Shown here: positions 1-43,355 of the stretch, piece by piece
Layout: the number at the start of each line of letters is the position of its first letter
Numbering within the stretch: the stretch's first letter is position 1
NCBI GenBank assembly: GCA_022340545.1
Contig: JAJDNV010000090.1
Coordinates: forward strand, 801 to 64,800
Origin: Acidobacteriota bacterium
Lineage (GTDB): Bacteria > Acidobacteriota > Vicinamibacteria > Fen-336
Length of the DNA: 64,000 bases
Reading direction: 5' to 3'
Notes under the pieces: model-generated
The model's input: only the letters and a program-made list of their open reading frames with translations
What the model was told of the DNA's origin: nothing
The model's database searches: none
Made by a program: the position numbers and the translations under genes

Positions 1-563
1 CCCGGATCGTCCCGAAACCAAGCGAGCCAGACGGCGGCCCAGACCACGCCCACGAGTCCATTGAGGACAAAGGTCCAGCGCCACCCGACCAGACCGATGA
101 CGAGCGGCATCGTGAAGAGCGACACCGCCGCCCCCAGGCGCGCGCCCGAGAACATGATGCCCTGCCCGATCCCACGCTCCCTGACCGGCAGCCAGCTGTA
201 GTAGGCCCGCGTGGCCCCCGGGTACGCGCCCGCCTCGCCCACGCCGAAAAGGAAACGCACGACGAGCATCGAGACCGCGCCCACCACCGCTCCGGTGAGC
301 ATGGTGAAGATGCTCCAGGCGGTGACGACCCAGGTGAGAGCCTTGCGGGGACCGAAGCGGTCGGCGAACCAGCCGGCCGGGACCTGGAAGAGCGCGTAGC
401 CCAGGGCGAAGATCCCGAAGACCCAGCCCATCATCTGGTCGGTGAGGCCCAGGTCGCGGATGATCGATGTTTTGGCCGACGAGATCGCCACCCGGTCCAT
501 GATCGTGTTGACCGAGTGGAAGAACAGCAGCCCGATGAGGATGTCGCGCTGGCGGTTTCTCAC
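1..563 (-). CDS. MFS transporter, hexuronate/glucarate-like family. The N-terminal ~187 aa are present; the C-terminus lies beyond the window start.
   Basis: Reverse-strand translation of 1-563 gives VRNRQRDILIGLLFFHSVNTIMDRVAISSAKTSIIRDLGLTDQMMGWVFGIFALGYALFQVPAGWFADRFGPRKAL..., typical MFS TM1-TM4 with a conserved DR..S motif. GTG start at 563 is preceded by GGGGAGG 9 nt upstream. Not in the ORF track because it is truncated by the window edge. Confidence 0.7.
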   Translation of the reverse strand, partial: MRNRQRDILIGLLFFHSVNTIMDRVAISSAKTSIIRDLGLTDQMMGWVFGIFALGYALFQVPAGWFADRFGPRKALTWVVTAWSIFTMLTGAVVGAVSMLVVRFLFGVGEAGAYPGATRAYYSWLPVRERGIGQGIMFSGARLGAAVSLFTMPLVIGLVGWRWTFVLNGLVGVVWAAVWLAWFRDDP

Positions 564-634
564 GCTATCGCGCCTCCCCGCGTGGGAGGCATCCTACCTG
601 CACCGCGGGGGAAACGGGAGCCGTCGCCCGCCGG

Positions 635-2299
635 CTAGCTCGACGCGCGGGCGGGGCGAGGAGGGGTGCGCAGGGCCACGCGGGCCTCGAAGGAGACCGC
701 GACCGCCAGCACGATCAGGATCGCGCACAGGCCGGCCAGGAACCAGTCAGGCCCCTCGCGACCGACCCCGGTGACCGCGCCGTGGACCTGCCACACGAGG
801 GCGCCGATGGTCGTCACGAGCATCACGAGGGCGGGGACGAGAGTGACGCGGCGCGCCTTCCCACGATCCACGAGCCAGCAGGAGACGACCAGCAGGGCCA
901 GCGCGGCCACGAGCTGGTTCGAGGCGCCGAAGGCGGGCCAGAGGACGCGCCACTGGTCGGACAGGGCCAGGGCCCCCGCCGCCACCACGACGATGATCGC
1001 CGGGGCCCACCGGCTCTCCCAGCCGGTGAGCTCGGCCAGGAGGTAGCGGCCGAGCCGGGTGGCGGTGTCGAGGGTGGTGAGGATGAAGAAGTTCAACGCC
1101 ATCAGGGCGAAGGTTGTCCCATAGCCCCCGAGCATCGAGCCGGTGAGCGAGCCGTATCCCTCGCCGAAGGCGGCGATGGCCCCCCCGGGTGCGCGCAGGA
1201 GCTCGGCGTGGCGGGCCGCGCTCAGCCCCGCCCCCACCGCGATCACCACCAGCGTCGCCACCGTCGACTCCATGATCATCGCGCCATAGCCAATGCGGCA
1301 GGCGTGGGCCTCGTTGTCGAGCTGCTTGCAGGTGGTGCCCGAAGACACGACCGAGTGGAACCCCGAGATCGCGCCGCACGCGATGGTTACGAACATGAGC
1401 GGCCACAGGGGACCCGCCAGCGGCCACTCCGCGGGCTGGAATCCGTGAAACGGCGCCGCCTGGAAGGCGGGCCCGGACACGAGAATGCCGACGAGACCGA
1501 GGCCGATCGTGGTGAAGAGCACGTAGGAGGACAGGTAGTCGCGGGGCTGGAGCAGGTACTGGACGGGAAGGACGGAGGCCACCAGGCAGTAGACGAGAAG
1601 CGCGAGGGCCCAGAATGTCTGTGGGGCGAGGCCCGCGACGTGCGGCACCGGCGGCGGGAAGGCGTGGCCGAGGGCGAGCAGGGCCACGATCGCACCCAGG
1701 CCTCCGATCGTGACCAGGGCGAGGCGCCCGCCGCCCGAGCGACCGCGGTAGAGGGCCACCCCGGCGAGGGCCGCGACGGGCAGGATGCCCCAGCTCGGCA
1801 CCACGATCTCCGGGGCCTGGACGAATGTACCCGCGGTGAGCACGGTGAAGACGGCCAGAACCAGGACGAGCGCGATCAGGATGAAGACGGAGAACAGCGT
1901 CCGAGCCCGCCGAGTGACCACACGACCCGAGACCTCGGCGATCGAGACGCCACCGTGCCGCACCGCGACCACGAGGGACGAGAAGTCGGCCACCGCACCC
2001 ATCAGCACGCCACCGAGGACGATCCACACGATGGACGGCGCCCAGCCCCAGTAGGCGACGGCGAGCGCCGGGCCCACGATCGGGCCCGCCGCACAGATCG
2101 ACGAGAAGTGGTGCCCGAAGAGGACCAGCCACTGCCGCGCCGGGACGTAGTCGACGCCGTCGTACTTCGTGTGAGCGGGAGTCGGCCGCGACGGGTCGAT
2201 GCCCAGCAGACGGGCGACGAGCCGGCCGTAGACCAGGTATCCCACCCCGAGGAGCGCGATCACGACGAGAAGGAGCGCCCGTGCGTCCATGTCCCTCAC
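635..2299 (-). CDS. cstA: Carbon starvation protein A family transporter (CstA/BtsT-like peptide or pyruvate transporter)
   Basis: 554 aa polytopic protein with the CstA signature FGHHFSSICAAGPIVGPALAVAYWGW and family-typical length. GAGGTGA sits 7 nt upstream of the ATG at 2299. Confidence 0.9.
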   Translation of the reverse strand: MRDMDARALLLVVIALLGVGYLVYGRLVARLLGIDPSRPTPAHTKYDGVDYVPARQWLVLFGHHFSSICAAGPIVGPALAVAYWGWAPSIVWIVLGGVLMGAVADFSSLVVAVRHGGVSIAEVSGRVVTRRARTLFSVFILIALVLVLAVFTVLTAGTFVQAPEIVVPSWGILPVAALAGVALYRGRSGGGRLALVTIGGLGAIVALLALGHAFPPPVPHVAGLAPQTFWALALLVYCLVASVLPVQYLLQPRDYLSSYVLFTTIGLGLVGILVSGPAFQAAPFHGFQPAEWPLAGPLWPLMFVTIACGAISGFHSVVSSGTTCKQLDNEAHACRIGYGAMIMESTVATLVVIAVGAGLSAARHAELLRAPGGAIAAFGEGYGSLTGSMLGGYGTTFALMALNFFILTTLDTATRLGRYLLAELTGWESRWAPAIIVVVAAGALALSDQWRVLWPAFGASNQLVAALALLVVSCWLVDRGKARRVTLVPALVMLVTTIGALVWQVHGAVTGVGREGPDWFLAGLCAILIVLAVAVSFEARVALRTPPRPARASS

Positions 2300-2427
2300 C
2301 TCGGCAGACGACCCCGCCCCTCCTCACGCACAGAGATCGGGGAATCTACCACGGACCGAGGCGGACGCGTGGCTTCTTCTCCGCCGGCCGCGGGGGGGCT
2401 GGGGCGGATCGCCTCCCCGGCGAGCGC

Positions 2428-2802
2428 TCAGCGATCGACGGTCTCCACCGGGCCTGAGCCCGGCGGGGCCTCACAGGGGACCTGCTGCCAGCCGGTGCGG
2501 ATCGTCGTTGCACCGCAGTAGTTCCGGCCCTGCGAGCGCGGGTCGTTCAGATAGGCGAGGATCGTGGCGCAGGTCTCGCTCTCCTCCGGACTCACCCGGC
2601 ACACCCCGCTGAAGGAGCGGTTGGTGAAGCAGCAGTCATCGCGCGGAGACGGCTCCTGCGGTGCCGCCGCGACGCCGACGCAGGCTTTCGGGTGAGCGAC
2701 GTCGGGCGCGGGTCCGGCCATCAGCGCCACCGCCGACCCGCCGACGAGGAGCGCGGCGAGACATGCCATCACAGATCTGAGCTCGGTGTGTCCTGTTCTC
2801 AC
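2428..2802 (-). CDS. Small secreted cysteine-rich hypothetical protein (8 Cys in the mature part)
   Basis: In-frame GTG at 2802 follows GGAGGAGG by 8 nt (an alternative ATG lies at 2769). Signal-peptide-like MACLAALLVGGSAVALMAGPA precedes a Cys-rich ~90 aa region (CVGV...DDCCF...GVCRV...ETCAT...NYCG...VPCE). It lies immediately downstream of the GRE gene. Confidence 0.45.
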   Translation of the reverse strand: MRTGHTELRSVMACLAALLVGGSAVALMAGPAPDVAHPKACVGVAAAPQEPSPRDDCCFTNRSFSGVCRVSPEESETCATILAYLNDPRSQGRNYCGATTIRTGWQQVPCEAPPGSGPVETVDR

Positions 2803-2836
2803 GGCACACCTCCTCCCTGAAGTATCCGACATTGCC

Positions 2837-5254
2837 CTACGCCAGGGAAGGCTTTGCCGCGACGACGGGCGCGGCGAGGGGGGTTGAGCCCGAGAGCCCG
2901 TCGTGCTCGGTGCGGGCGATGATCTCATCCTGGAGGGCCACTGAGAGGTCGCAGAAGTAGTCGCTGTAGCCGGCCACACGCACGATCAGGTCGCGGTGCT
3001 CCTCGGGCCGCGCCTGCGCCTCGCGCAGCGTCTCTGCCCGCACCACGTTGAACTGCACGTGATGCCCGTCCATCTTGAAGTACCCCCGCACGAGGTGGGC
3101 CAGGGCGTCGATGCCGGCATCGCCGTCGAGGAGAGAGGGGGCGAACTTCATGTTCAGCAGGGTGCCGCCCGTGCGGAGGTGGTCCATCTTCGCCGCCGAT
3201 CGGAGGACAGCGGTCGGTCCGCGACGGTCGGCCCCCTGCACCGGTGAGATGCCCTCGGACACTGGCCGCGTCGCTCGACGTCCGTCCGGCGTCGCCCCGG
3301 TCACCGAGCCGAAGTAGACGTGACAGGTCGTGGGCAGCATCTGGATGCGGTACCGTCCCCCGCGGGCGCTCGGGCGGCCGTCCACCGAGGAGAAGAAAGC
3401 CTCGAAGGCGCGCTGCATCAGGGCGTCGGCGCGGTCGTCATCGTTGCCGTACTTCGGCATGCGGTTGACGAGCCGCAGGCGCAGGGGCTCGTGTCCGTCG
3501 AAATCGCCGTCCAGCGCCGACACGAGCTCCTCGAGAGACACGCGCCCCTCCTCGAACACCGCGCCACGGATGGCGGCGAAGCTGTCGGTCAGCGTCCCGA
3601 TACCCACCCCCTGGATGTAGGTATTGTTGTACCGGGCGCCGCCGGCGTTGTAGTCACGGCCGCTGCGGATGCAGTCGTCGATCAGGACCGAGAGGAATGG
3701 CGCGGGCATGAGCCGCGCGTACATCCTCTGGATCACCTGGTTGCCGGCGATCTTGACGTCGAGAACGTGCCTCATCTGTGTCTCGAAGGCGCCGAAGACG
3801 GCATCGAAGTTCTTGAGGGTCCCCGGCTCGCCGGTGGCCGGGCCGAGCCGACGCCCCGAGCGCGGATCGAGTCCGTTGTGCAGGGCCAGCTCCAGCACCT
3901 TCGGCAGGTTGAAGTAGCCGGTGAGGATGTAGGCCTCCTTGCCGAAGGCCCCGACCTCCACGCAGCCCGAGCAACCGCCGGCCCGGGCGTCCTCGAGCGT
4001 CTTGCCCTGGCGTAGCTGTTCCGCGACGACGGCATCGGCGTTGAACAGCGACGGGAATCCGTAGCCCTTCCGGACGACCCTCAGGGCGTGCTTCAGGAGC
4101 GCGTCCGGCGTCTTGCCCGAGACCTGGACGTTCGAGGATGGCTGGAGGAGGTGCATCTCGTCGATGATCTCGAGGAGGAGATGCGAGACCTCGTTCGAGC
4201 CGTCGGTGCCGTCCGTCCGGAGCCCGCCGAGGTTGATGTTGGCGAAGTCGGTGTAGGTGCCGCTCTCGGCGGCGGTGACCCCCACCTTCGGCGGCGCCGG
4301 GTGGTTGTTGAACTTGATGAAGAAGCACTCGAGGATCTCCTTCGCCCGCTCCCGCGTGAGCGTCCCTTCCATCAGGCCACGCTCGTAGAACGGGAGCAGG
4401 TGCTGGTCGAGGCGTCCCGGGTTGAAGGCGTCCCAGCCGTTGAGCTCGGTGATGACGGCGAGGTGGCAGAACCAGTACGACTGGAGCGCCTCCTGGAGAT
4501 CGCGGGGGGCCTGAGCGGGCACCCGGCGGCACACGGAGGCGATCGTCTTGAGCTCGGAGCGTCGAGCGGGCTCGGGCTCGGCTTCGGCCAGGGCCTCGGC
4601 CCGCTCGGCGTGGCGCGCCGCGAAGAGCAGAACCGCGTCGCACGCGATGTCCATGGCCCGGAGCTGTTCACGTCTGTCCCAGGCCTCCCCATCGTGGAGA
4701 GGGTCCAGCGCCTCGACGGCGGCGGCGATGTCGGCCTTGAAGTCCAGTAGCCCCCGCCGGTAGATCTTGTCGTCGAGGACGGTGTGGCCCGGGGCCCGCT
4801 GCTCCATGAACTCGGTGAAGAGCCCGGCCTCGTAGCACGTGTGCCATTCCGGTGGCAGGGCCTCGAAGATCCGGTCGCGCAGCGACCGGCCTCGCCAGTA
4901 GGGGATGACGTCCCGCTCGTAGGCCAGGATCACATCGGGGTCGACCCGGTAGCTCGTCTTCTCGCGGGAGTTCAGGATGCGAAGGTCCTCGACGCTGTGG
5001 CAGGTGAGCTCCGGGAAGGTGGGGACGGCCTTGGGCGCCGGCCCCCGCTCGCCGACGATCAGCTCGCCCTCGCCCACGTGGATTCGCCTGTTCTCGCAGA
5101 GGTGCAGAAACGCGCGGGCCCGCATGACGGGCACAGAGAGGCGCCCGTCGTGGTCGCGGTAGAAGCGCGTCAACAGGAGCGCGCGCTCGGCGGAGATCGA
5201 TGGCGGGGTGTCGAGGCTCAGCCGGCGCAGGGCTTCGGTTCGGGGGGTCATCAT
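2837..5254 (-). CDS. Glycyl radical enzyme, PFL2 / glycerol-dehydratase-like (eliminase) family; substrate unknown
   Basis: 805 aa from ATG at 5254-5252 (MMTPRTEALRRL...). The C-terminal glycyl radical motif is RVAGYSDYFCDL. Active-site loop GGCSGCVEVG has the Cys-x-Glu arrangement of PFL2-type eliminases. The track's 1065-aa ORF has a low-complexity N-terminal 260 aa that overlaps the activase gene and is rejected. Confidence 0.9.
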   Translation of the reverse strand: MMTPRTEALRRLSLDTPPSISAERALLLTRFYRDHDGRLSVPVMRARAFLHLCENRRIHVGEGELIVGERGPAPKAVPTFPELTCHSVEDLRILNSREKTSYRVDPDVILAYERDVIPYWRGRSLRDRIFEALPPEWHTCYEAGLFTEFMEQRAPGHTVLDDKIYRRGLLDFKADIAAAVEALDPLHDGEAWDRREQLRAMDIACDAVLLFAARHAERAEALAEAEPEPARRSELKTIASVCRRVPAQAPRDLQEALQSYWFCHLAVITELNGWDAFNPGRLDQHLLPFYERGLMEGTLTRERAKEILECFFIKFNNHPAPPKVGVTAAESGTYTDFANINLGGLRTDGTDGSNEVSHLLLEIIDEMHLLQPSSNVQVSGKTPDALLKHALRVVRKGYGFPSLFNADAVVAEQLRQGKTLEDARAGGCSGCVEVGAFGKEAYILTGYFNLPKVLELALHNGLDPRSGRRLGPATGEPGTLKNFDAVFGAFETQMRHVLDVKIAGNQVIQRMYARLMPAPFLSVLIDDCIRSGRDYNAGGARYNNTYIQGVGIGTLTDSFAAIRGAVFEEGRVSLEELVSALDGDFDGHEPLRLRLVNRMPKYGNDDDRADALMQRAFEAFFSSVDGRPSARGGRYRIQMLPTTCHVYFGSVTGATPDGRRATRPVSEGISPVQGADRRGPTAVLRSAAKMDHLRTGGTLLNMKFAPSLLDGDAGIDALAHLVRGYFKMDGHHVQFNVVRAETLREAQARPEEHRDLIVRVAGYSDYFCDLSVALQDEIIARTEHDGLSGSTPLAAPVVAAKPSLA

Positions 5255-6147
5255 CAGGCTCCAAGCGAGACCTGGAGGCCCCGCTCGCGAAACACGACCG
5301 CGAGGGCCTCCATCCGTTCGGGGGAGGGCGGGGCGAGGGACTGGAGCGAAGACGGCCGGCCGAGTCGGCGGGCCTTGTCCACGCCGGTCCGGTGGTACGG
5401 CAGCAGGCTCACCCGGCGCACGCCGCTCAGCCCGGCAACGATCTCCGCCAGCGCGGCGAGGTCGGCTTCGCCGTCGGTGTGGCCGGGGATGATCGGGACG
5501 CGGATCCAGAGCGAGCGGTGGGCACGGCTGAGCGCCTGCAGGTTTTCGAGGATTGGCTCCGTGGGGAGGCCGGTGAACTCGCGGTGTCGGGCGTCGTCGG
5601 CGAGCTTCAGGTCGAAGAGGAAGAGGTCCACGAGCGGGACGAGGCCGAGAATCTCCTCGCGCGGTCCGAAGCCGCACGTGTCCACCGCGGTGTGGAGGTC
5701 GTGGCCCCGCGCGGCCTCGAGGAGGGCCCGGAGGAACCGAAGCTGGGCCAGAGGCTCGCCGCCGGAGAAGGTGACGCCGCCCCCCGATTCCTGGAAGAAG
5801 ACGCGGTCGCGCAGGACCTCGGCCATCACCTCGTCCACGGTCGTCTCGCGGCCGACCATCTCCCGGGCCCCGGCCGGGCACGCCTCGATGCAGGCGCCGC
5901 AGGCCGTGCACACGCCGGAGCCGGGGTCGGGGGCCCCGTGCGGGCACACCTCCTGGCACGTGCCGCACTCGATGCAGCGGCTGTCCACCCTCACGACCTC
6001 GGGCCCGAACGACTGGCTCTCCGGGTTGTGGCACCAGAGACAGCGGGCCGGGCAGCCCTTGAGGAAGACGGTGGTGCGGATGCCGGGGCCGTCATGCAAC
6101 GAGTAGCGCTGCACGTTGAAGACGCGCCCGCTCGTCAGCCCGCTCAT
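5254..6147 (-). CDS. Glycyl radical enzyme activating enzyme (radical SAM, PflA/CutD-like)
   Basis: 297 aa with a CPARCLWCHNP radical-SAM CX3CX2C cluster near the N-terminus, plus ferredoxin-like CIECGTCQEVCP and CTACGACIEACP inserts typical of GRE activases. Its stop TGA (5256-5254) overlaps the GRE ATG (TGATGATGA). Confidence 0.9.
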   Translation of the reverse strand: MSGLTSGRVFNVQRYSLHDGPGIRTTVFLKGCPARCLWCHNPESQSFGPEVVRVDSRCIECGTCQEVCPHGAPDPGSGVCTACGACIEACPAGAREMVGRETTVDEVMAEVLRDRVFFQESGGGVTFSGGEPLAQLRFLRALLEAARGHDLHTAVDTCGFGPREEILGLVPLVDLFLFDLKLADDARHREFTGLPTEPILENLQALSRAHRSLWIRVPIIPGHTDGEADLAALAEIVAGLSGVRRVSLLPYHRTGVDKARRLGRPSSLQSLAPPSPERMEALAVVFRERGLQVSLGA

Positions 6148-6833
6148 GGCGAGGCCTCGACCGCCTCTCCGAAGTAGTAGCGGTGGATGAAGGGCTCCTG
6201 GACGCCGAAGGACCAGTGCACGTCGCGAAGGTGATCGGCAGCGGCCCGCGCGTCGCCCCTCGCCACGAGCCGTACCAGAGCGGCGTGCTCCTCCAGAGAG
6301 GCAAGCTCCCAGTCCTTCACGAGCCCCTGGCGCCGGGGCCAGTCGTAGAGTCTTTGCTTCTGGATGCGCACGATCCGCACGAGGAGCTCGTTCTCGCAGC
6401 GGTCGAGGAACACGTCGTGGAAGGCGAGGTTCCGGTCGTAGTACAGGTCGAAGTCGTCGGCGAGCACGGCGCTCTTCATCTCCGCGTTCAGGCCGTTGAG
6501 GGTTCGTATCTCCGCCTCGCCAAGCTTCGGGAAGGCGGCGAGGACGGCCGTCCCCTCGAGGGCCCCGATCAGCTCGTAGAGATGGCGGATGTCCTCGAGG
6601 GTCAGTGGCCGCACCCGGACTCCCCGCCGGGGAAGGATCGCGACGAAGCCCTCCGCCTCGAGCTGGAGGAGGGCGTCCCGGAGCGGGGTGCGGCTCACGC
6701 CGAGTCGAGAGGCCAGCTCGTCCTGGTTGATGAACGACCCGGGTTGGATCTCACCGTGGGTCATGAGCAGGCGCAGGTGGTCGTAAACCTGCTCCCGGAG
6801 TGACTTGAGGACGAGCGGACCCGACGTGCCCAC
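6144..6833 (-). CDS. GntR family transcriptional regulator, FadR/FCD subfamily
   Basis: 229 aa with an N-terminal winged HTH (QDELASRLGVSRTPLRDALLQLEAEGFV) and a C-terminal FCD-like helical domain. GTG start at 6833. Its 3' end overlaps the activase start by 4 nt. Confidence 0.85.
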   Translation of the reverse strand: MGTSGPLVLKSLREQVYDHLRLLMTHGEIQPGSFINQDELASRLGVSRTPLRDALLQLEAEGFVAILPRRGVRVRPLTLEDIRHLYELIGALEGTAVLAAFPKLGEAEIRTLNGLNAEMKSAVLADDFDLYYDRNLAFHDVFLDRCENELLVRIVRIQKQRLYDWPRRQGLVKDWELASLEEHAALVRLVARGDARAAADHLRDVHWSFGVQEPFIHRYYFGEAVEASP

Positions 6834-6851
6834 GATGGCCTTCCGTGGACT

Positions 6852-6863
6852 CTGATATATCAG
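6852..6863. promoter_or_regulatory. Perfect 12-bp AT-rich palindrome CTGATATATCAG, 19 bp upstream of the gntR start; candidate GntR-type operator or promoter element
   Basis: Seen directly: ...ggactCTGATATATCAGatttcag... in an otherwise ~70% GC context. GntR/FadR-type operators are typically short AT-centred palindromes. Confidence 0.4.
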
Positions 6864-6937
6864 ATTTCAGATGCCCCCGCCAGCCTCGTGGGCGCTGGGA
6901 TGGACTTCGATGAGCCCCCGGCGGTCCCGCCGCCGGC

Positions 6938-7675
6938 CTAGCTGAGCCAGTCGATCAGACCCCGGACCGCGGAGAGGATCTCGACGTCGTGGCTCGCCGG
7001 CCGGGTGCCGGGCGCGGCGGAGAGCCTCCCCGTCATCAATCGGGCGTCAAGCTCGGCCTGGCGCAGCCGTTCCCGCTCATCCTGGAGGTCCGCCTTCTCC
7101 CGGGCCCGCGCCCGGTCCATCCCGCCCGCCCGGATGAACTCGACGATCCGCCGCAGCTCGCCCTGGTTGAGCCAGACGCCGTGCCCCTTGCAGACGTCGA
7201 CGAGAACACCCGACACCCGGGCGAAGTTGTGCCGGTTCATCAGACGCCGGCACTCGGGGCAGGGCCAGTAGCGCTGGGGCCCGGCCGGCGCGGGCGGGGC
7301 CTGGGGCCGGGACAGCGTCGCCTCCAGGACGACGGTCTGCTGCTCGGTCTCCTCGCAGATGCGGTGAAATGAGGTTGTGTCCACCCAGAGGCCGCCGCAG
7401 CGCGTGCACTCGTCGAGGGTGACCGAGCCCACCTTCGCGGGCTCGAGAGGACGCTTGCACTCCGGACAGGGGCGGGACGGACGGGACTCGGCCTCCTCGC
7501 GCACCGCCTTCGCCCCGCAGTGGGCGCAAAAACGAGTGCCCCGGAACAGCTTGGCGAAGCATGACGGGCAGGCCACGAGGGCGAGCAGGGTGCCGCAGTA
7601 TGGGCAGGCCGTCGCATCTGGCGTGGCCGGAGCTCCGCACGAGGGGCAACGGACGGTCCCCGCAGTCTTCGGCAT
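6938..7675 (-). CDS. Zinc-ribbon protein with two zf-TFIIB-like CxxC...CxxC modules
   Basis: 245 aa containing CPSCGAP...CPYCG, CPSC...CAHCG, CPECKRP...CTRCGGLWVD and CPECRRL...CKGHGVWLNQGEL. A C-terminal charged, coiled-coil-like segment follows. Confidence 0.6.
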   Translation of the reverse strand: MPKTAGTVRCPSCGAPATPDATACPYCGTLLALVACPSCFAKLFRGTRFCAHCGAKAVREEAESRPSRPCPECKRPLEPAKVGSVTLDECTRCGGLWVDTTSFHRICEETEQQTVVLEATLSRPQAPPAPAGPQRYWPCPECRRLMNRHNFARVSGVLVDVCKGHGVWLNQGELRRIVEFIRAGGMDRARAREKADLQDERERLRQAELDARLMTGRLSAAPGTRPASHDVEILSAVRGLIDWLS

Positions 7676-7795: not shown

Positions 7796-9121
7796 CTATT
7801 TCGTGACCGTGAAGACGACGCGCTCGGAACGCGTGCCGACCCCATCCTCGAGGGCGATCGCGAACTCCCCGGTCTCCGCGTCTTCGGCGAGATCGACGAG
7901 GATGGTGATCAGCGTCGGGTTCACATACTTGTGACGGAGCACGGTCACGCCCCGGGGGGCCTTCTCCAGGGGGAGAATGCGGGCCTGGAGATCGGAGCGG
8001 AACCCGGTTCCCCGCAGATCGAGCAGGACCTTGCCCGGCCGCCGCACCTCGAGCGGCGACACCGTGGAAAGGACCACCGGCTCCGCCGGCGGGGCCGGCG
8101 GCGCAACCTGGGGCGCGGGGTTCGGCGGTGGCGCCTCGACCTGGGGCGCGGGGGCGGGCGGCGCGGCGGCCGGCTCCGGGCGCGTCACCGGCTCGGGGGG
8201 TGCTGGCACCGGCGTGGGTGTGGGTGTCGGCCTGGGCGTGGGTGTGGGCGCGGGCTCGACCGCAGTCGGCGGAGGGGACACCGCCCGAGGCGGCGTGGGT
8301 GTGGGCGTTGGTCGCACGCCGGGATCCGTCATCGCCGGCGTGGGCGTTGGGATGGCCGGGACGGGCGTGGGCGCGGCGGCCGCCGGTGTGGGCGTGGGCT
8401 GGGTGGCCGTTGGCTCCACCGCTGCCGGCGTGGTGGCCGGAACCGAGGCGACGGTCGTGGGTGGCGCCGGCGTTGTCGCCGCACCCGACGAGGATGTGAG
8501 CCCGGGCCCGAGGTACTGCCAGCCCGCGCCGGCGGCAAGGCCAATGACGACGACCAGGGCGGCGAGAAGCGGCCACGTGCGTCGGGAGGGCCGCTCGGCA
8601 CTCGCCCGCGCCGGCTTCGCCGATCGTGCCGAGCGTGTGATCCGGGGCGACGTCTTCGGTCCCGCCGAGCTCTTCTGCTGAGCCGCCGCCATCTGGGCGA
8701 GGTACGTCAGGTCCTTCGGCCGCCAGTCGGCCGAGCGCTCGAGGCAGGCCATGACCGCGTCCGCCAGCTCCCGGGGCAGATCGGAGCGCACCTTGAACAG
8801 GTGGGCGGGGGAGTCACCCGCGGGACGTCCGGCCAGGATCTCCCAGGCGATCGCCCCGGCCGAGTAGACGTCGGCCAGCGCCGGCGGCGCGTCGCCGCCG
8901 GCGTCGGGTGCGGCGTAGCCGGGCGCGGGAGCGCCCTGGCGCGCCGCTGAGAGGTCGCAATCCAAGTCGGAGCCCAGCTCGATGCGAGAGGGCTCGAGGG
9001 CGGCCAGAGCCCCGCCGCGGTCGTGGACTTCGTTGACGGCCTGGCAAAGAGAGTGAACGACGCGCAGCCTCTCGTCGAGCGATCGTTCCTGCCGGAGCCA
9101 GACATCGAGCTTCATGGTCAC
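7796..9121 (-). CDS. Membrane protein with a degenerate protein-kinase C-lobe-only domain, a TM helix, a long Pro/Thr/Ala-rich linker and a ~90 aa C-terminal domain
   Basis: The N-terminal ~160 aa resemble Ser/Thr kinase subdomains VIb-XI (VHDRGG in place of HRD; DVYSAGAIAWEILAG like subdomain IX; ACLERSADWRP like XI). There is no Gly-loop/VAIK N-lobe, and no room for one upstream. A TM segment WPLLAALVVVIGLAAGAGW follows, then a PTPTP-rich linker. Confidence 0.5.
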   Translation of the reverse strand: MTMKLDVWLRQERSLDERLRVVHSLCQAVNEVHDRGGALAALEPSRIELGSDLDCDLSAARQGAPAPGYAAPDAGGDAPPALADVYSAGAIAWEILAGRPAGDSPAHLFKVRSDLPRELADAVMACLERSADWRPKDLTYLAQMAAAQQKSSAGPKTSPRITRSARSAKPARASAERPSRRTWPLLAALVVVIGLAAGAGWQYLGPGLTSSSGAATTPAPPTTVASVPATTPAAVEPTATQPTPTPAAAAPTPVPAIPTPTPAMTDPGVRPTPTPTPPRAVSPPPTAVEPAPTPTPRPTPTPTPVPAPPEPVTRPEPAAAPPAPAPQVEAPPPNPAPQVAPPAPPAEPVVLSTVSPLEVRRPGKVLLDLRGTGFRSDLQARILPLEKAPRGVTVLRHKYVNPTLITILVDLAEDAETGEFAIALEDGVGTRSERVVFTVTK

Positions 9122-9254: not shown

Positions 9255-10682
9255 CTATTGACCCAGCGGCGGAAAGCCGGCCTTCTGGGCCAACTTGTCC
9301 ACCAACGGCACCAGGTCGTTGATGCGGGGGAGCTTCTTTCCGTTGACGTAGACGGTCGGCGTCGCGTTGACTCCCAGACGCCGGGCCTCGGCGATCTGCG
9401 CCGCGAGCGCCGCCTTCGCCTGCGGATCCTCCAGGCAGCCCCGCATCGCCGCGGGGTTGAGGCCGGCCTCGCCGGCGAGGCGGATGACGTCGGCGGCTCC
9501 GGGATTGCGGAGCCCCTCGGCTGAGAACACGCGGTCGTGGTAGGCGTCGAACTTGCCCTGGTACTCGGCACAGATCGCCCCGAGGGCCAGCTGGCAGGAG
9601 CCGGGGTGGGTCGAGCGCGGCAGGCTCTCGTTGCACTCCTTGTCGAGCGGGTAGTTCTTGAAGCGAACGGCCACCCGCCCGCCGGCCTGGGGCAGGAACT
9701 GCGAGAGCCCCAGCCCCAGATTGCGGCAGAACGGACAGAGGAAATCGGAGTACTCGACCACCGTCACCGGCGCGTCGGCGGGGCCCCTCAAGGGGACGTT
9801 CTCCAGGTCGATCGTCTCCACTGGCGCGCTCTCGAACTGGGCCTGGGCCTTCCTCGCGAAGTACTGCTCGAGCTTCCGGGGATCATCGAGCGTCTCCTGA
9901 AGCTCCTGGGCTCGCTCCTTCCAGTACGCCGCCTCCTTGGAACTCTGGGAGACCTCCTCCGCCGGCGGGGCCTCCGGGGTCGGATTCGTCCCGTCCGGGG
10001 TGGTGTCGGGCGATGCGTCGTGCGGCGCGTCGGCGGGCGGCGGGGGAATGGGGGCCGGTGCGCCGAGAAGCGCGACCTGTCGCCGCTGCTCACGATAGTC
10101 GAGCGTGGACTCCGCCCCCAACACGGCCGCGGCGAGCGCGAGAGAGCCGAGCGCCCAGCCCGCGACCGCCAGCCGGCCCTCGACCCGCCGGAGGGCCCCG
10201 CCCGGATCCAGGGCCCCGCGCCACGCCGGCAGGAGAGCGACCAGGGCCAGCGCGCCCAGGACATAGGTCAGGATGCACACCGAGCAGAAGGCCTGGACCG
10301 CAAGCGTCTGGACACCGAGGAGGAACATGTCGAACAGAAGACCCAGGGCAAGGCCCACGACGACCCATCCGGTCAGCGCCGGCCGCAGCTCGTCGGGAAC
10401 GAGGAGCGTGAGCAGCAAGAGAAGGCCCAGCGACGCGTAGAAGACGATCCCCAGGGCCGCCAGGGGAACTCCCCGGATCGACGACCAGGAGCTCCGGGCC
10501 ACTATCTCGCAATCGCTGCCCGTGCCGGCGTCGCCCTCGCTGCAGACCCGGTTGACGGCGGACACCGCGCGGCCCTCTCCGTGGTGTTGGAGGAGCAGCA
10601 GGCCGGAGACCATCGTCCCGGCCAGGCAGAGAACGAGCGCGATCACGAGTCGCTTCACACTAGTTGTTCCCAATGGAGCCAA
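9255..10682 (-). CDS. Vitamin K epoxide reductase (VKOR) domain fused to a DsbA-like thioredoxin domain
   Basis: The N-terminal polytopic domain has loop cysteines (CSEGDAGTGSDC) and the CSVC redox motif typical of bacterial VKOR. The C-terminal domain has a CPFC thioredoxin-fold active site and a DsbA-like sequence. Confidence 0.8.
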   Translation of the reverse strand: MAPLGTTSVKRLVIALVLCLAGTMVSGLLLLQHHGEGRAVSAVNRVCSEGDAGTGSDCEIVARSSWSSIRGVPLAALGIVFYASLGLLLLLTLLVPDELRPALTGWVVVGLALGLLFDMFLLGVQTLAVQAFCSVCILTYVLGALALVALLPAWRGALDPGGALRRVEGRLAVAGWALGSLALAAAVLGAESTLDYREQRRQVALLGAPAPIPPPPADAPHDASPDTTPDGTNPTPEAPPAEEVSQSSKEAAYWKERAQELQETLDDPRKLEQYFARKAQAQFESAPVETIDLENVPLRGPADAPVTVVEYSDFLCPFCRNLGLGLSQFLPQAGGRVAVRFKNYPLDKECNESLPRSTHPGSCQLALGAICAEYQGKFDAYHDRVFSAEGLRNPGAADVIRLAGEAGLNPAAMRGCLEDPQAKAALAAQIAEARRLGVNATPTVYVNGKKLPRINDLVPLVDKLAQKAGFPPLGQ

Positions 10683-19699: not shown

Positions 19700-20914
19700 T
19701 CAGCCGGTGTCGGCGACACGCCCGCGCGCCGCGCGCACGCCGTCGCGCAGCAGCTCGCCGAGCCAGGCGGCAGACACCACGAGCGTCACACCGACCCCCA
19801 GGACCCAGAGCCGCCCCGCCCCGACTGCGGCCGGCCCTTCCAGGGGCTGGGGCAGGAGGACGCCCGGCGCGAGGAAGAGATAGAAGCCGACGAGTCCCGC
19901 GGTGGCCCCCGCCGCGTGCGCGGCAAGCATCCGGCCCGGCCACAGCACGCCGAACGGCACGACCCAGAGGAGATACTGGGCGCTGAGCGAGCCGTAGAGA
20001 ACGTGGAAGGCCAGAAACGTGACGAGGCAGGCCCGCGCCGGGGAAAGGGCGAGCCAACCTCGGCGCGTCGCGACGGCGAGCCCGACCCAGGACACGAGGA
20101 AGAGCATCCTCGAAACGACCGAGGCAACGGGCCAGAAGCGGGCCTCGCTTCGCGCCAGATCGCCGCTCCCGAGCCAGGAGAGGCCCCGCACGAGCCCGGT
20201 CCAGCCGAAGTCGGCGATCCCGGCGTAGGCGAACAGCTCGCGCCGAAGAGCGGTGAGATCCGCGATCGCGAATGGCAAGAGGACGAGGGCCACCGGGGTC
20301 AGGGCGAGAAACGCGTAGCGCAAGGCCCGTCGCCAGGACGCTTCTCCCGCGAAGGCGAGGAACGGGAGGACCAGCACCGGGAAGGACTTCGTCCCGATCG
20401 CGGCGGCCAGCGACAACGCGGAGAGGTCGCGCCGTCCGCGGGCGAGGGCGGCGAGCGCGAGCAGGACCAGCAGGAGGGCAATCGCGTCGAACTGTCCGTG
20501 GGCGCCGGTGATGAGCACGCTCACCGGGTGGGCGGCGTAGATCCAGGCCGCCGCCGGCGGGGCGCGTCCGGCGCGTCCGGCCACGACGAGCGCGGCCACG
20601 ATGAGCAGATCGGCGAGCAGGGCCGGCAGCTTGACGTTGACGGGGAAGGTGCCCACGCCGCGCCGGGATAGCCACTCCGCCCCCGCCTCGGCAAGGGACC
20701 AGAGGGGCGGGTACGGATACAGGCGAGTCGTCTCGTACGGGTTCCAGGAGACGTCGAGTAGGTGGCGGCCCACGCGCTGGTACCGCTCGACATCGGCCAC
20801 GACGCGGTCCAGGACGAGGACCGGGGCCAGACGAAGCGCGAGGGCCAGCAGAACGGGGCCGGCGAGCGCCCGGCTCAACGGCGCGCCCTCGCTTTCGCGC
20901 GGCGTCCCCTCAAC
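19700..20914 (-). CDS. Polytopic membrane protein, putative GT-C-type glycosyltransferase (DUF2029/GT87-like)
   Basis: About 400 aa with more than 10 TM helices and the YPYPPLWSL motif in the first loop. Start is uncertain: TTG at 20879 overlaps the CHAT stop, and GTG at 20914 is the alternative. The N-terminal 130 aa of the track ORF are low-complexity and antisense to the CHAT gene. Confidence 0.5.
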   Translation of the reverse strand, partial: VEGTPRESEGAPLSRALAGPVLLALALRLAPVLVLDRVVADVERYQRVGRHLLDVSWNPYETTRLYPYPPLWSLAEAGAEWLSRRGVGTFPVNVKLPALLADLLIVAALVVAGRAGRAPPAAAWIYAAHPVSVLITGAHGQFDAIALLLVLLALAALARGRRDLSALSLAAAIGTKSFPVLVLPFLAFAGEASWRRALRYAFLALTPVALVLLPFAIADLTALRRELFAYAGIADFGWTGLVRGLSWLGSGDLARSEARFWPVASVVSRMLFLVSWVGLAVATRRGWLALSPARACLVTFLAFHVLYGSLSAQYLLWVVPFGVLWPGRMLAAHAAGATAGLVGFYLFLAPGVLLPQPLEGPAAVGAGRLWVLGVGVTLVVSAAWLGELLRDGVRAARGRVADTG

Positions 20915-22086
20915 GGCGGCCGCAGCGTCGCACCCGGGTCGCGGGCGAAGAGCACCGGCACCGCCCAGTCGAGGGCCGCGGTGCCCATCGAGTGCGCGAG
21001 GGCCACCCGGGCCTCGCGGGCGGCATCCCCCAACCCGCGTCCGAGGGCGAGGGCGGCGTAGAGCTCGCGCGCGAACGTGGTGGCCGCGGTGTCGAGGACC
21101 GCGTATTGGTTGGCCACCACCGCCGGGACCCCGGCCGCGACGAGGGCGGGGGCCATCCCCCGGTTGAAATCCACGCGCCCCCCTCGTCCGCTCTCGCAGG
21201 CGTTGAGGAAGACGAGGTCGGTGCCTCGTCGCCCGACGATCTGCCGAAAGGCCGCTGCGTCCACCGCCCTGGGTCGTCCCCTCCCATCCTCGAGGAAGAG
21301 GCATCCCTCGCGGGCGTCATCGTCGTAACTCCCGTGTCCGATGTAGTGAAGCACGTCGACCGCCTGGTCGCTCAGACGGCGGTGGAGGGCCTCGGGGGTC
21401 GCCCGGGCCACCACGCTGACCGAGGCGAGCCCGGCGTCGACGAGCGGCCGGAAACCCCGCCGCACGAGCGCGGCCTCCTCCCGGGCCGCGACCGGGGCCG
21501 CCCCCTCCGGCTCGGCGGTGGCGACGAGGATCCGAAGCCGCTCGCGTCGTCGGGAGCGGACCTCGGCGGGGACGGCGGTGAAGACGTTGCGCACGAAGTT
21601 GACGTCCGACGTGGCGAGGTGCGACCGGCGCACTGGATCGTAGGCGAGCTCCCACGGCTTGTCCGCCACCCAGTCGATCATCGAGGTGAACACGAGGTCG
21701 AGAACGCCGTCCGGCTGGAGCGAGCGGGCGACGTCGTAGAGCCGGCGGACGTCCCCGGGGAAGAGGAGCTCGAACAGGTCCCGCCCCCACGCGCGCAGCT
21801 CGCGCCCGCGGGGGAGCGTCCGGCCCCGCCCCCGGCCCTCGAGCACGGCGAGCGTCCGCTCATGCGCGCGGATGATCCTCTGCCACCTCGCCCCGGCCTC
21901 GCCACCCCGACGCGGGAACGGCGCGACGGCCCGAGCGTTGCGGAACGAAGCGAGGAGTGTCGCACTCTCGGCGGCCGGGTCGGAGGAGAGGACGAAGAGC
22001 TCGAGAACGTCGCCAGGCCCGGCGTCGGACGGGGGACGGGCGGAGGGTCGGGAGCGAGGAGACGAGGCGGCGCGGCGCGTGCTCAT
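20875..22086 (-). CDS. CHAT domain (caspase-like Cys protease) protein with an uncharacterised ~190 aa N-terminal region
   Basis: The C-terminal half has the His-Cys dyad context VLHYIGHGSYDDDAREGCLFLEDG and DLVFLNACESGRG, typical of the CHAT/caspase fold. Confidence 0.75.
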   Translation of the reverse strand: MSTRRAASSPRSRPSARPPSDAGPGDVLELFVLSSDPAAESATLLASFRNARAVAPFPRRGGEAGARWQRIIRAHERTLAVLEGRGRGRTLPRGRELRAWGRDLFELLFPGDVRRLYDVARSLQPDGVLDLVFTSMIDWVADKPWELAYDPVRRSHLATSDVNFVRNVFTAVPAEVRSRRRERLRILVATAEPEGAAPVAAREEAALVRRGFRPLVDAGLASVSVVARATPEALHRRLSDQAVDVLHYIGHGSYDDDAREGCLFLEDGRGRPRAVDAAAFRQIVGRRGTDLVFLNACESGRGGRVDFNRGMAPALVAAGVPAVVANQYAVLDTAATTFARELYAALALGRGLGDAAREARVALAHSMGTAALDWAVPVLFARDPGATLRPPLRGRRAKARARR

Positions 22087-22107
22087 GGCCCGATCTTCAC
22101 CGCACCA

Positions 22108-22124
22108 GGGTCCCCGGGGGGACC
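22108..22124 (-). terminator. GC hairpin (GGGTCCCCGGGGGGACC) just downstream of the DUF349 gene; possible terminator separating it from the CHAT operon
   Basis: 6-bp stem with a 4-nt loop, seen directly. No U-tract follows, but that is common in GC-rich genomes. Confidence 0.3.
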
Positions 22125-22144
22125 GCCCGCAAGCCCCAGGCGCC

Positions 22145-24838
22145 TCAGCCGCGCTTCCGGGACGGGCGTCGCGCCCCCGATCGGGTCCGCTCCGGTCGCG
22201 GCCTCAGCTCGAAGAACCTCTGGCAGGCACGGTTGAAGCGCTCGGCGAGGCCGCGGCCGTCCGCGCCCGGCATCGGGCCGAGGCGTCGCCATCCGGACTG
22301 CGCCGCCTCGACCTCGCTCGTGGCGGAGTGCCACCGGGCCTCCGCGGCCTCACGCCCGCCGATGGTGTTGGCGGCTAGGGCGTCGCGGAGCCGGGCCGCC
22401 AGCTCCTCGGTGCTGCCGATGGTGGCCGATCCGCCTTCCGGGGCGAGCTCCCCGAGCAGGTTCTCCACCCGGGCGATCAGCTTCTCCGCCTTCCGCCGGC
22501 TCGCCTCGGGGTCGAGCTCCGTGCCGGCGAAAGCCTGGGGATAGAGCTCCACGAGCCGGTCCCGCACCCGGGAAAATCGCTCGGCGAACGGGGTCATCAT
22601 GTCGCGAGGGAGCTCGCCGGCTTGACGCCACGCCGTCTGCGCCGTCTGGACCCGGGCCACCAGATCCTCCGGCGGAGACCCTTCGCTGCCTTCGGGGGGA
22701 AGGAGGGCTTCCAGCTCGGAGCAGATCCCCCCCCGCGTCTCCTGGACGGCCTGCAGGGCGAGGGCGTCGCGGTGCTTGTAGCGATCGAAGAAATGATCGC
22801 AGGCCTTGCGGAAGCGCTTCCACACCGCCTCCGAGCGGCTCTTCTTGACCGACCCGATCTTGCGCCATTCCGCTTGCAGTCCCTTGAGCTCGGAGGCGGT
22901 GGTCTCCCAGTCGGTCGACTCCATCATCGCCTCGGCGCGCTCGCAGAGGGCCTCTTTCTTCTCGAGGTTTGCCGCCCACTCCTTGCCGCGCTTTTCCCGC
23001 TGCTCATGCCAGCGCGTGAAGAAGCGGTCGCAGGGCTGTCGAAAGCGGTCCCAGATTCTGCGCGAGTGGGCTCGCGGCACGGGACCGACCTGCTTCCACT
23101 CGGCCTGCAGGCGGCGCAGCTCGTCCGCGGTCTTCACCCATTCCGTCGAATCGGCGAGAGACTCGGCCTTCTCGCAGAGAGATTCCTTCTTCCGGAGGTT
23201 CTCCTCCAGCTCCTCTGCCTGCTTGGCGAAGAACGCGTCGACCCGGCCCTTGACCACGTCGCGCGCGGCCTTGAACCGCGTCCAGAGCTCCTCGGCGTTT
23301 TCCTTCGGTGCCTCCTTGGCCTGCTTCCAGCGTGCGTCGAGATCCTTCAGCTTGCGTGCGGCCCGGGCCGTGTCCCGCTCTTCGATGAGGGCCTCGGCGC
23401 GCGCGCAGAGGTCCTCCTGCACAGACTCGTTGGCCCAGCGTTTCCACTCTGCATCTTCGCGCAGCTGCTGCAGCACGGGGTAGAGGGCCTTGCGGGCGGC
23501 CTCGAGCCGGGCCAGGGTCTGCTCGCGATCGAGACGCGAGGGAAAGTGTCCGGGGCGGTCGAGGGCGGAGCGGATCTCTCGCGACACGTGGTCGACGTCC
23601 CGCAGGCCGGGGTTCTCCCTGGCGAGCAGCGACTCGGCTCTTTCCACGAGGGTGGTGAGGTGTGCGAGGTTCTCACGATCCCTTCGCTCGCGCTCCTCGC
23701 GGGCGGCACGTTGGCGCCCGTGCATTCGCGCCGCCGCGTCATCGAAGCGGGTGCGGAGGTCCGGCTGGTCCTCCGAAGCCGCGAGCTCGTTCCATCGCTG
23801 CTCCACCTCCCCCCAGGCGGAGCGGTCCTCGCCGTCGGCGAGCGCCTCCGCTTTCGCCACGAGCGCGGCGAGCTCGTCACGGCGGGCGAGGCCGGTCAAG
23901 TAGGCCTGGTGGCGACGCTCGGCGGCGGCGATCGCCGCCTCGAAGCGCGCCGCGGCGCGCGCGGCTTCCTCGCCGGTGTTGGGCTCGAGTGCGTCCCACG
24001 CCGCTCGCGCCTGCTCGAGGGCGGTCGTGATGGCCTCCCCTTCCGCTCCCTCGACCGACTCGCAGAGGCGGGCTCGTGCCTCGAGGGCTACCCCTCGCTC
24101 CTTCGCCTTCTCTTCTTGTTCCGCTCGTGCCCGCTCGTAGACCTCTCGCTCCCTCTCGTTCTGCTCGATGGTGGTGGACGCCGCCGTGGGGCGGTTGGTC
24201 GCCGGCTTCTCCTGGTCGAGCCGGGCCCGCGCCCGGCGGGCGGCGGCGCCGAGTCGCGACTTCTCGGCCACGGTCTCGATCGCGCCGTAATCCTCCAGCC
24301 GGTCCACCGCCGCCACCGCGATCGCCTTCTGGTCGGATTTGAGGGCGAAGGACAGGAGGGTGGGCTCGTCGTCGATTCGGCCCAGGGCCAGAAGCCGGGT
24401 CGCCCCGTCGTCGGCTTCCCGGACGACGCTGGCGAGGGCCCGGGGGTCGTTCAATGCCTCGACCGCGGCCCCGCGCACCGCGGGCAGAACCGCCGAACGC
24501 GCCACTGACGAGAGGTGTCGAGGCTCGCTCAGGGCGGCGAGCGCGGCCCGGGTCTCCTCCTCCTCGGTGGCGTGAACGACCAGGTGCACCAGGCGTGTCG
24601 TGGCCTCCTCGCGGACGCCATCGTCGTCGTCGGTGCGGGCGAGGTCGATGAGGACCTCGGCGTCAGTCAGTTTCTTCGCCGCCGCGCGGCGGACGCGCGG
24701 CTCGTCATCCTCCCGGGCGATGGCGAGCAGGGTCTCGCGCTCGGAAGACGGGAGACGCAGGACGGCCGCGGCCCGGACCGCGGGATCGGGATCCTGCCAC
24801 TCGGGCTTGTTGAGCAGACGGTCGATGATGCCCTTCAC
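22145..24838 (-). CDS. DUF349 repeat protein with N-terminal HEAT/PBS-lyase-like repeats
   Basis: 897 aa. Multiple ~75-aa repeats carry the W..R...F...FF.RW signature (EELWTRFKAARDVVKGRVDAFFAKQ; RIWDRFRQPCDRFFTRW; AVWKRFRKACDHFFDRY), characteristic of DUF349. Confidence 0.75.
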   Translation of the reverse strand: MKGIIDRLLNKPEWQDPDPAVRAAAVLRLPSSERETLLAIAREDDEPRVRRAAAKKLTDAEVLIDLARTDDDDGVREEATTRLVHLVVHATEEEETRAALAALSEPRHLSSVARSAVLPAVRGAAVEALNDPRALASVVREADDGATRLLALGRIDDEPTLLSFALKSDQKAIAVAAVDRLEDYGAIETVAEKSRLGAAARRARARLDQEKPATNRPTAASTTIEQNEREREVYERARAEQEEKAKERGVALEARARLCESVEGAEGEAITTALEQARAAWDALEPNTGEEAARAAARFEAAIAAAERRHQAYLTGLARRDELAALVAKAEALADGEDRSAWGEVEQRWNELAASEDQPDLRTRFDDAAARMHGRQRAAREERERRDRENLAHLTTLVERAESLLARENPGLRDVDHVSREIRSALDRPGHFPSRLDREQTLARLEAARKALYPVLQQLREDAEWKRWANESVQEDLCARAEALIEERDTARAARKLKDLDARWKQAKEAPKENAEELWTRFKAARDVVKGRVDAFFAKQAEELEENLRKKESLCEKAESLADSTEWVKTADELRRLQAEWKQVGPVPRAHSRRIWDRFRQPCDRFFTRWHEQREKRGKEWAANLEKKEALCERAEAMMESTDWETTASELKGLQAEWRKIGSVKKSRSEAVWKRFRKACDHFFDRYKHRDALALQAVQETRGGICSELEALLPPEGSEGSPPEDLVARVQTAQTAWRQAGELPRDMMTPFAERFSRVRDRLVELYPQAFAGTELDPEASRRKAEKLIARVENLLGELAPEGGSATIGSTEELAARLRDALAANTIGGREAAEARWHSATSEVEAAQSGWRRLGPMPGADGRGLAERFNRACQRFFELRPRPERTRSGARRPSRKRG

Positions 24839-39277: not shown

Positions 39278-39485
39278 CTCGCCCGCGTGTCCCTTCCTTG
39301 GGGACCCGCGGGTGGACGGGGCCTATCTCAAGACGCCTCGCGGCCTGTGGGAGGCGACGCTGGCGCGTCGCAGCGTACACTCGGGGTCGACGCTCGTCTC
39401 GCCAGCTCGACTTCGCGTCCCCCGAGCCCCCTCCGTGGGGAGGGATAGGGTGGGGGGTCGATGAACGATTGTGGCCGCTGAGCGT
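39278..39485 (+). repeat. Structured intergenic repeat, long form, copy 3 of 4; lies between the divergent pyk and nuoA
   Basis: Near-identical module order to copy 1. It shares its 3' tail (GATGAaCGATTGTGGCCGC) with copy 4. Confidence 0.8.
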
Positions 39486-39641
39486 AGAACTCTCTCTCCT
39501 CACGGGGCTTGCGTGTCCTCGGGGCGTTTGACACCCCGCGAGGCCGGAAGCTATATTCCGGCGTCGATCACCATCTGCCGTCGCCGCCGTTCTTCAATCG
39601 TTAGACCAGGACCCTTCGCCCGACCGCCAGACGCTCCGATC

Positions 39642-39992
39642 ATGCCCAGCTACCTTCCGATCGTGATCCTGGGGGCGATCGCCCTGGGCTTCGGTGTCTT
39701 CGTGCTGGCGGCCTCCCACATCATCGGGCGCCCTCGCCCCGACGCCCGGAAGCTGTCCACCTACGAGTGCGGCATGCCGCCGGTCGGGACCGCCCGCGAG
39801 CGGTTTCCGATCAAGTTCTACCTCGTGTGCATGCTCTTCATCCTCTTCGACGTGGAGACCGCGTTCTTCTATCCGTGGGCGCTCGTCATGGACACGCTGG
39901 GGATCTACGGTCTGATGGCCATGGGGACATTCTTCCTCGTCCTGGCCGTGGGCTTCGTCTACGAGTGGAAGGTCGGAGCGATGGACTGGTAG
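39642..39992 (+). CDS. nuoA: NADH-quinone oxidoreductase subunit A
   Basis: 116 aa, three TM helices; ...STYECGMPPVG...FDVETAFFYPWA matches the NuoA/ND3 signature. Confidence 0.85.
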   Translation: MPSYLPIVILGAIALGFGVFVLAASHIIGRPRPDARKLSTYECGMPPVGTARERFPIKFYLVCMLFILFDVETAFFYPWALVMDTLGIYGLMAMGTFFLVLAVGFVYEWKVGAMDW

Positions 39993-39996
39993 CGGC

Positions 39997-43351: not shown

Positions 43352-43355
43352 CGCG

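Follow-up and report, generated by a model that had tools for sequence, protein, structure and literature searches.

The stretch of DNA analysed here, called the window in what follows, comprises 64,000 nucleotides (nt) of contig JAJDNV010000090.1 from an Acidobacteriota bacterium (assembly GCA_022340545.1; Vicinamibacteria in the GTDB lineage). Close to its left end three minus-strand genes are packed together: gntR, coding for a transcription regulator, a gene for a radical S-adenosylmethionine (SAM) activase, and the gene of a glycyl radical enzyme (GRE) (Table 1). The end of gntR and the start of the activase gene overlap by 4 nt (ATGA, as ccATGAgc), a sign of translational coupling, while the activase stop codon shares 1 base with the GRE start codon in a TGATG overlap (context gccTGATGATGAcc). 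The first-pass annotation of this DNA, made by a model that saw only the letters, had placed the three open reading frames (ORFs) and their overlaps in the same way, and had recorded downstream a Cys-rich secreted protein, cstA and an MFS transporter. All of this stands: the downstream genes, also on the minus strand, code for a small Cys-rich product whose N-terminus resembles a signal peptide, a CstA-family protein and an MFS_1 protein. Its description of a high-GC genome stands as well: GC is about 0.70 throughout the window, and the composition carries no sign of recent transfer. Our analysis identifies the locus, very probably, as a GntR-regulated operon for trans-4-hydroxy-L-proline dehydratase (HypD) and its activase.

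The GRE is made of the PFL-like and Gly_radical domains (Pfam). It scores 1227 bits with the NCBIfam equivalog model NF043068 ('glycl_HYPD'), for a cutoff of 1100, and covers model positions 3-782 of 784; each of the remaining GRE equivalog models (sulfopropanediol dehydratase, CutC, indoleacetate (IAD) and hydroxyphenylacetate (HPAD) decarboxylases, pyruvate formate-lyase (PFL)) stays far under its own cutoff. In a comparison with solved structures, HypD of Clostridioides difficile (6VXC/6VXE) comes first with 1024 bits, the runner-up being glycerol dehydratase (GD) at 502, followed by CutC (481), propanediol dehydratase (PD, 467), HpyG (8ID1, 434), HpzG (8IOF, 418), HplG (7VUA, 406) and IslA (397). 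The alignment with the substrate-bound crystal structure of C. difficile HypD extends over 780 residues with zero gaps and 53.7% identity, and residues can therefore be mapped directly, the window position being the 6VXC position minus 3. Structure and mutagenesis of the C. difficile enzyme (PMC7077986) defined its CXE motif (Cys434/Val435/Glu436), its radical site (Gly765), an acid/base network (His160, Asp278, Asp339), carboxylate binders (Ser334, Tyr450, Thr645), aromatic contacts (Phe152, Trp277, Phe340) and charge partners (Arg156, Lys326). Strict conservation of Asp278 and Asp339 sets HypD apart from other eliminases, and Ser334, conserved in HypD as well, takes the position that a Phe has in those (PMC7077986). 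All 15 of these catalytic and substrate-contact residues are kept in the window enzyme, with H157, D275 and D336 as the acid/base network and S331, Y447, T642, F337, F149, W274, R153 and K323 for substrate binding. They are, moreover, invariant across 120 sequences (the query and its 119 closest cluster representatives).

The first-pass annotation had read the glycyl loop RVAGYSDYF (G762) and the Cys loop GCSGCVE (C431, E433) correctly, and the GCVE loop is indeed that of a Cys-x-Glu eliminase-type GRE. It was also right in setting aside a classical PFL (TIGR01255 gives 135 bits for a cutoff of 994, and the loop has a single Cys) and in counting hydroxyproline among its candidate substrates. 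Where it went astray was in holding that the substrate could not be assigned from sequence and that the enzyme might represent an uncharacterised GRE specificity: both the equivalog model and the structure comparison single out HypD, and the protein falls firmly within HypD, with every substrate contact conserved. As for the other families considered, classical PFL, CutC, GD/PD, IslA, HpsG/HpfG, IAD, HPAD, Bss, HplG, HpyG and HpzG were rejected, all with scores far under that of HypD.

The likeness to C. difficile extends to the fold family, the gapless core, the glycyl and CXE loops, the complete active site and the presence next door of a dedicated radical-SAM activase (HypD-AE). By contrast, the window has no adjacent proC, the gene of delta1-pyrroline-5-carboxylate (P5C) reductase, and no Stickland prd context; its activase gene lies upstream and is translationally coupled, a GntR regulator belongs to the operon, the host is a high-GC Acidobacteriota, and the enzyme ends with a C-terminal tail of about 20 amino acids (aa). 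An adjacent proC is typical of Clostridiales HypD loci without defining them. This tail, absent from the C. difficile enzyme, and an identity of only 53.7% to the characterised HypD might be taken as signs of a shifted specificity, for another isomer or derivative of hydroxyproline (Hyp) such as N-methyl-cis-4-hydroxyproline (HpyG/HpzG) or trans-4-hydroxy-D-proline (HplG). Several GREs have Hyp derivatives as their substrates, and these three are, like the window protein, PFL2-type enzymes with a CXE loop (PMC13450708). However, they act on other substrates, HplG by C-N cleavage, and score 406-434 bits where HypD reaches 1024; the window enzyme keeps all HypD-specific residues, the counterparts of Asp278, Asp339 and Ser334 included, and exceeds the equivalog cutoff. 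A shift of specificity is thus unlikely.

Table 1. Features at the hypD locus, with predicted assignments (window coordinates).
Feature	Position	Strand	Basis
hypD, trans-4-hydroxy-L-proline dehydratase (glycyl radical enzyme, 805 aa)	2837..5254	(-)	NF043068, 6VXC/6VXE alignment, active-site residues
Glycyl radical loop RVAGY (Gly762 = C. difficile Gly765)	2966..2980	(-)	Pfam Gly_radical 121 bits
Cys loop G-C431-V-E433 (CXE motif = C. difficile Cys434/Glu436)	3956..3967	(-)	residue roles, PMC7077986
hypD activating enzyme (radical SAM GRE activase, 297 aa)	5254..6147	(-)	TIGR02494, position
gntR, FadR-subfamily (GntR winged helix-turn-helix + FCD) regulator, 229 aa	6144..6833	(-)	Pfam GntR + FCD
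Conserved box GAAATCTGATATATCAGA, candidate GntR operator	6851..6868	(-)	cross-locus conservation
Small Cys-rich ORF, 113 aa, operon membership uncertain	2428..2769	(-)	signal-peptide-like N-terminus
CstA-family transporter, neighbour	635..2299	(-)	Pfam CstA 420 bits
MFS_1 transporter, N-terminal part (gene cut by window edge), neighbour	3..593	(-)	Pfam MFS_1 120 bits

All residues that take part in catalysis being conserved, the mechanism of C. difficile HypD (PMC7077986) can be carried over by analogy. Under anoxia, the activase would cleave SAM, and the 5'-deoxyadenosyl radical would take a hydrogen from Gly762. The glycyl radical would then give rise to a thiyl radical on Cys431, which would abstract a hydrogen from C5 of Hyp. 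Asp275 would deprotonate the amine and protonate the leaving C4 hydroxyl, helped by His157, Glu433 and Asp336, which would position the substrate and relay protons, with Ser331, Tyr447 and Thr642 holding the carboxylate and Phe337 stacking on the ring. Water would leave, hydrogen would be returned to C4, and the product would be (S)-P5C, likely to enter proline or glutamate metabolism via enzymes encoded elsewhere. The activase belongs to the general GRE-activase subfamily (TIGR02494, 339 bits for a cutoff of 174); it displays a CX3CX2C motif (C32/C36/C39) and two ferredoxin-like Cys4 motifs. In most of 80 related loci, its gene immediately precedes hypD.

How far does the conserved unit extend? 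We compared the neighbourhoods by tblastn of the window proteins against these 80 loci, to which three more (L082-L084) were added later, making 84 loci with the window's own metagenome contig (L001) among them; gene order around three close homologs (80-84% identity) was taken from pre-called genes. This replaced a clustering of the ORFs around hypD in the 80 loci, polluted by spurious opposite-strand ORFs in high-GC DNA, in which nothing was broadly conserved past the activase-hypD pair. Orthologs of gntR (41-86% identity) are found upstream of activase-hypD in about 12-14 loci, mostly in Acidobacteriota, and the three close homologs have the same gntR-activase-hypD order within unrelated flanks. 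Judged from these comparisons, the functional module is predicted to be this three-gene cassette.

The regulator combines a GntR winged helix-turn-helix domain (PF00392, 58.6 bits) with an FCD domain (PF07729, 64.8 bits). Its closest solved structure is that of Thermotoga maritima TM0439 (3SXY/3FMS), which also served as the template for HypR of Streptomyces coelicolor (PMC6608401). On visual comparison, the regulator's His139 and His183 match histidines of TM0439, likely the metal ligands of that protein, with a third His (201 or 206) nearby. The 104-nt gap upstream of gntR contains a perfect palindrome, CTGATATATCAG, at 6852-6863; on the coding strand it extends to the box of Table 1, ending 18 nt before the GTG start of gntR, with a GGAAGG ribosome-binding-like element in between. 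The box, of consensus (GAAAT)CTGATATAT(C/T)AG, is single in the 64-kb, 70%-GC window at up to one mismatch, for 0.02 occurrences expected. The same box, or its variants CTGATATATTAG/CTGATATTTTAG, is present at the equivalent place in L002, L003, L004, L006, L012, L017, L024, L066, L082, L083 and L084. Altogether, every gntR-bearing locus with an available upstream region has it (13/13) and none of the others does (0/71); when the 13 upstream regions are aligned, ten box columns are invariant and the flanks are unrelated. This makes the box, probably, the operator of GntR. The gntR-activase-hypD order stays constant amid variable flanks, and a box that is unique in the window, tied to the presence of gntR and overlapping an A/T-rich -10-like element is what one expects of the operator of an autoregulated, dimeric repressor of the FadR type.

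Regulators of this kind have been associated with Hyp before. FadR-type GntR repressors named HypR control aerobic Hyp catabolism in Sinorhizobium meliloti and other Proteobacteria and in S. coelicolor (PMC5343134, PMC6608401), and the GntR regulators of Hyp catabolism found in our literature search were those of the aerobic pathway. HypR is commonly autoregulated, and its S. coelicolor site covers the -10 region (PMC6608401); the HypR regulons of Alteromonadales and Aeromonas include proline peptidases and a di/tripeptide permease (PMC5343134). The window regulator shares with HypR (S. meliloti, PMC5343134; SCO6294, PMC6608401) the domain pair, the association with Hyp-catabolic genes and, likely, autoregulation from a site at its own promoter. 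It differs in being encoded beside the anaerobic radical route, where HypR controls an epimerase/oxidase route. In the regulation that we propose, a GntR dimer would bind CTGATATATCAG over the promoter that precedes its own gene, and keep the operon repressed as long as its FCD domain has not bound Hyp or a metabolite derived from it. Tentatively, with somewhat less than even confidence, we propose that this GntR is an undescribed, Acidobacteriota-specific sensor of Hyp (or of Hyp peptides or P5C), with CTGATATAT(C/T)AG as its operator, that switches on the oxygen-sensitive HypD route and would allow soil phyla to scavenge Hyp in anoxic microsites.

The Hyp itself would be peptide-derived, probably from collagen or plant Hyp-rich glycoproteins, and either imported or released in the periplasm. 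The argument for peptides comes from an Acidobacteria groundwater metagenome-assembled genome (MAG), L081, and from the presence of M24 peptidases within a few kb of hypD in 7/84 loci. In L081 (3678-10361) the box, as ACTGATATATTAGATATCAAG, is located not in front of gntR but at the head of a longer operon, with the order M24/AMP_N Xaa-Pro aminopeptidase, GntR/FCD regulator, POT/PTR2 peptide permease, activase and HypD. This suggests that Hyp is gained there from imported X-Hyp peptides; a regulator accompanied by an Xaa-Pro peptidase and a peptide permease is also what proteobacterial HypR regulons display. In another Acidobacteriota MAG (L084:17161-19803), about 5-7 kb downstream of hypD, there are a weak GH127-like gene and an arginase-family gene. 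The GH127 family includes beta-L-arabinofuranosidases acting on the Hyp-linked arabinosides of plant extensins. The GH127-like gene may thus be a hint, at a single locus, of plant Hyp-rich glycoproteins as the Hyp source. The window itself has a gene for a Peptidase_M19 membrane dipeptidase (24915-26186, minus strand, 385 bits) some 20 kb from hypD, possibly an unlinked source of free imino acids.

To be sure, several observations weigh against a Hyp operon under GntR control. The best specific model for the activase, NF043069 (trans-4-hydroxy-L-proline dehydratase activase), gives 324 bits, under its cutoff of 425, and the putative assignment to HypD is made from position and the subfamily model only. 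Of the 45 ORFs called in the window, 43 were scanned, and none of these proved to be proC, putA or a P5C dehydrogenase gene; the window also has no dedicated Hyp transporter. What the operon provides may be a carbon/nitrogen source, a supply of proline or an electron sink. The HypR motif published for S. coelicolor, CTNTGC(A/C)ATGTCAC, is unlike the box, which overlaps an A/T-rich -10-like element and, being A/T-rich, could simply be the -10 region of a promoter. Finally, a consensus scan of 500-7100 revealed no sigma-70-like promoter. The single terminator-like site is within hypD but on the opposite strand, and the scan does not inform on the operon boundaries. The absence of proC, for its part, is normal, because in a 2018 survey that found HypD in more than 850 genomes of eleven phyla only a small subset had a neighbouring proC (PMC6219649).

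Downstream of hypD, conservation is quickly lost. The small Cys-rich ORF, 67 nt after hypD, matches no Pfam or NCBIfam family, and its mature product would have 8 Cys; a 65%-identical ortholog occupies the same place only in L002, the window's closest relative, and the ORF is also called as a gene on the JGI contig. The CstA and MFS genes had been taken by the first-pass annotation as a clue to the GRE substrate, and an alternative explanation of the locus follows from it: a GRE of uncharacterised specificity would act on a small molecule imported by these two transporters, which indeed lie directly downstream on the same strand, CstA being found downstream of hypD in L002 as well. This is still less probable than a shifted specificity, and as regards the substrate it is refuted: the GRE is HypD by every sequence test. 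Moreover, CstA is near hypD only in L001 and L002, being absent from 82/84 loci, and outside the window no counterpart of the MFS gene accompanies hypD, in L082 or any other locus. In L082, whose HypD is 84% identical, the upstream synteny is that of the window (zinc-ribbon protein, VKOR-DsbA, UbiD, NUDIX, Fpg) and sugar oxidoreductases stand in place of cstA downstream of hypD. In L002 (10867-14335), the gene of an L-lactate permease (602 aa) is 5 nt upstream of a 92%-identical cstA; the window is without it, and there the gap between the small ORF and cstA is only 128 nt. Because of this lactate permease gene directly before cstA, an indel between the two loci, the comparison suggests that cstA is part of a monocarboxylate uptake unit rather than an accessory of hypD. 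The protein belongs to the CstA family (PF02554, Table 1), with 220 bits for the pyruvate/H+ symporter equivalog, whose cutoff is 1188. A relaxed operator search (3 mismatches) returned four matches for 4.09 expected, one of them at 2817-2828 between hypD and the small ORF. As these matches are at chance level, before cstA too, nothing indicates co-regulation of the small ORF or of cstA with the operon, and cstA is probably outside the hypD unit.

Turning back to HypD, the enzyme has a wide distribution. A scan of species-representative genomes yielded at least 575 relatives, the best 80 of which are 68-89% identical to the window GRE. The relatives belong to Acidobacteriota (Vicinamibacteria, Thermoanaerobaculia, Holophagales), Verrucomicrobiota, Planctomycetota, Gemmatimonadota and Lentisphaerae, with Geomonas and Aeoliella among cultured organisms, and an identical protein was matched on only one contig, an 8.3-kb one from a JGI metagenome. 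Proteins 74-80% identical, from Vicinamibacteria and Thermoanaerobaculaceae MAGs, are already labelled 'trans-4-hydroxy-L-proline dehydratase' at NCBI; JGI labels are older and generic, as in 'formate C-acetyltransferase'. The idea that such an enzyme is unusual in a respiratory, high-GC genome is thus a weak one, since Acidobacteriota, Verrucomicrobiota, Planctomycetota and Geomonas frequently have close orthologs. The GRE can be said only loosely to sit beside a complex I module: nuo genes are there, as the first-pass annotation had noted, but the first of them is at 39471, at a distance of over 32 kb. Nor is it remarkable to find a GRE in a genome with complex I, which is used in anaerobic respiration too; Escherichia coli, like other facultative anaerobes, has both. 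Cultured members of the class Vicinamibacteria are aerobes. With some of the relatives labelled Vicinamibacteria and the downstream pathway genes not adjacent, one might even see in this GRE the decayed, non-functional remnant of an enzyme in an aerobic organism, but this is the least credible explanation of all, as the genes have unbroken reading frames, translational coupling and a high GC at third codon positions, the catalytic residues are invariant in the 120 sequences and the regulatory box is conserved, all of which argues for purifying selection.

The structure and mechanism of HypD have been worked out, and standard annotation models suffice to give the window protein its name. The lead for a new GRE specificity can therefore be closed, with little consequence for enzymology. 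Two points retain a modest novelty, namely the three-gene cassette of Acidobacteriota type with its box, and how widely intact HypD occurs among phyla of soil and sediment: orthologs with an intact active site are frequent among environmental members of Acidobacteriota, Verrucomicrobiota, Planctomycetota and Geomonas, which extends the picture of anaerobic Hyp use well past gut Firmicutes and Bacteroidetes. In the library that was searched, no paper on HypD in Acidobacteria was found, and none that brings hydroxyproline and the glycyl radical together with this group. We offer the FadR-type GntR, with its conserved 12-18-nt palindrome, as a candidate regulator of the anaerobic HypD route. If this is true, Acidobacteriota, usually treated as aerobic heterotrophs, and with them Verrucomicrobiota and Planctomycetota that have the same enzyme, would widely scavenge Hyp in anoxic microsites from collagen or plant Hyp-rich glycoproteins.

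A few other features of the window deserve mention. Directly upstream of gntR, on the minus strand, lie the gene of a double zinc-ribbon protein (DZR/Zn_ribbon_TFIIB; 6938-7675) and that of a 441-aa ORF without Pfam match (7796-9121), both syntenic in L002, L003 and L082; a VKOR-DsbA fusion (9255-10682) comes after the latter. The nuo cluster (39471-48588, plus strand) is of unusual order. It contains, in succession, NuoA, a fused NuoE-NuoF, NuoH and NuoL (43671-45584, from Pfam), the 606-aa fusion associating 2Fe-2S thioredoxin-like, 51K FMN and NADH_4Fe-4S domains; no B, C, D, G or I genes are present between NuoA and NuoE-NuoF, and the missing subunits are presumably encoded elsewhere. Labels J, K, M and N follow from position, those ORFs lying outside the domain scan. 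Further minus-strand genes, at 20875-24838, code for a CHAT-domain protein (403 aa) adjoining an 897-aa protein with four DUF349 repeats.

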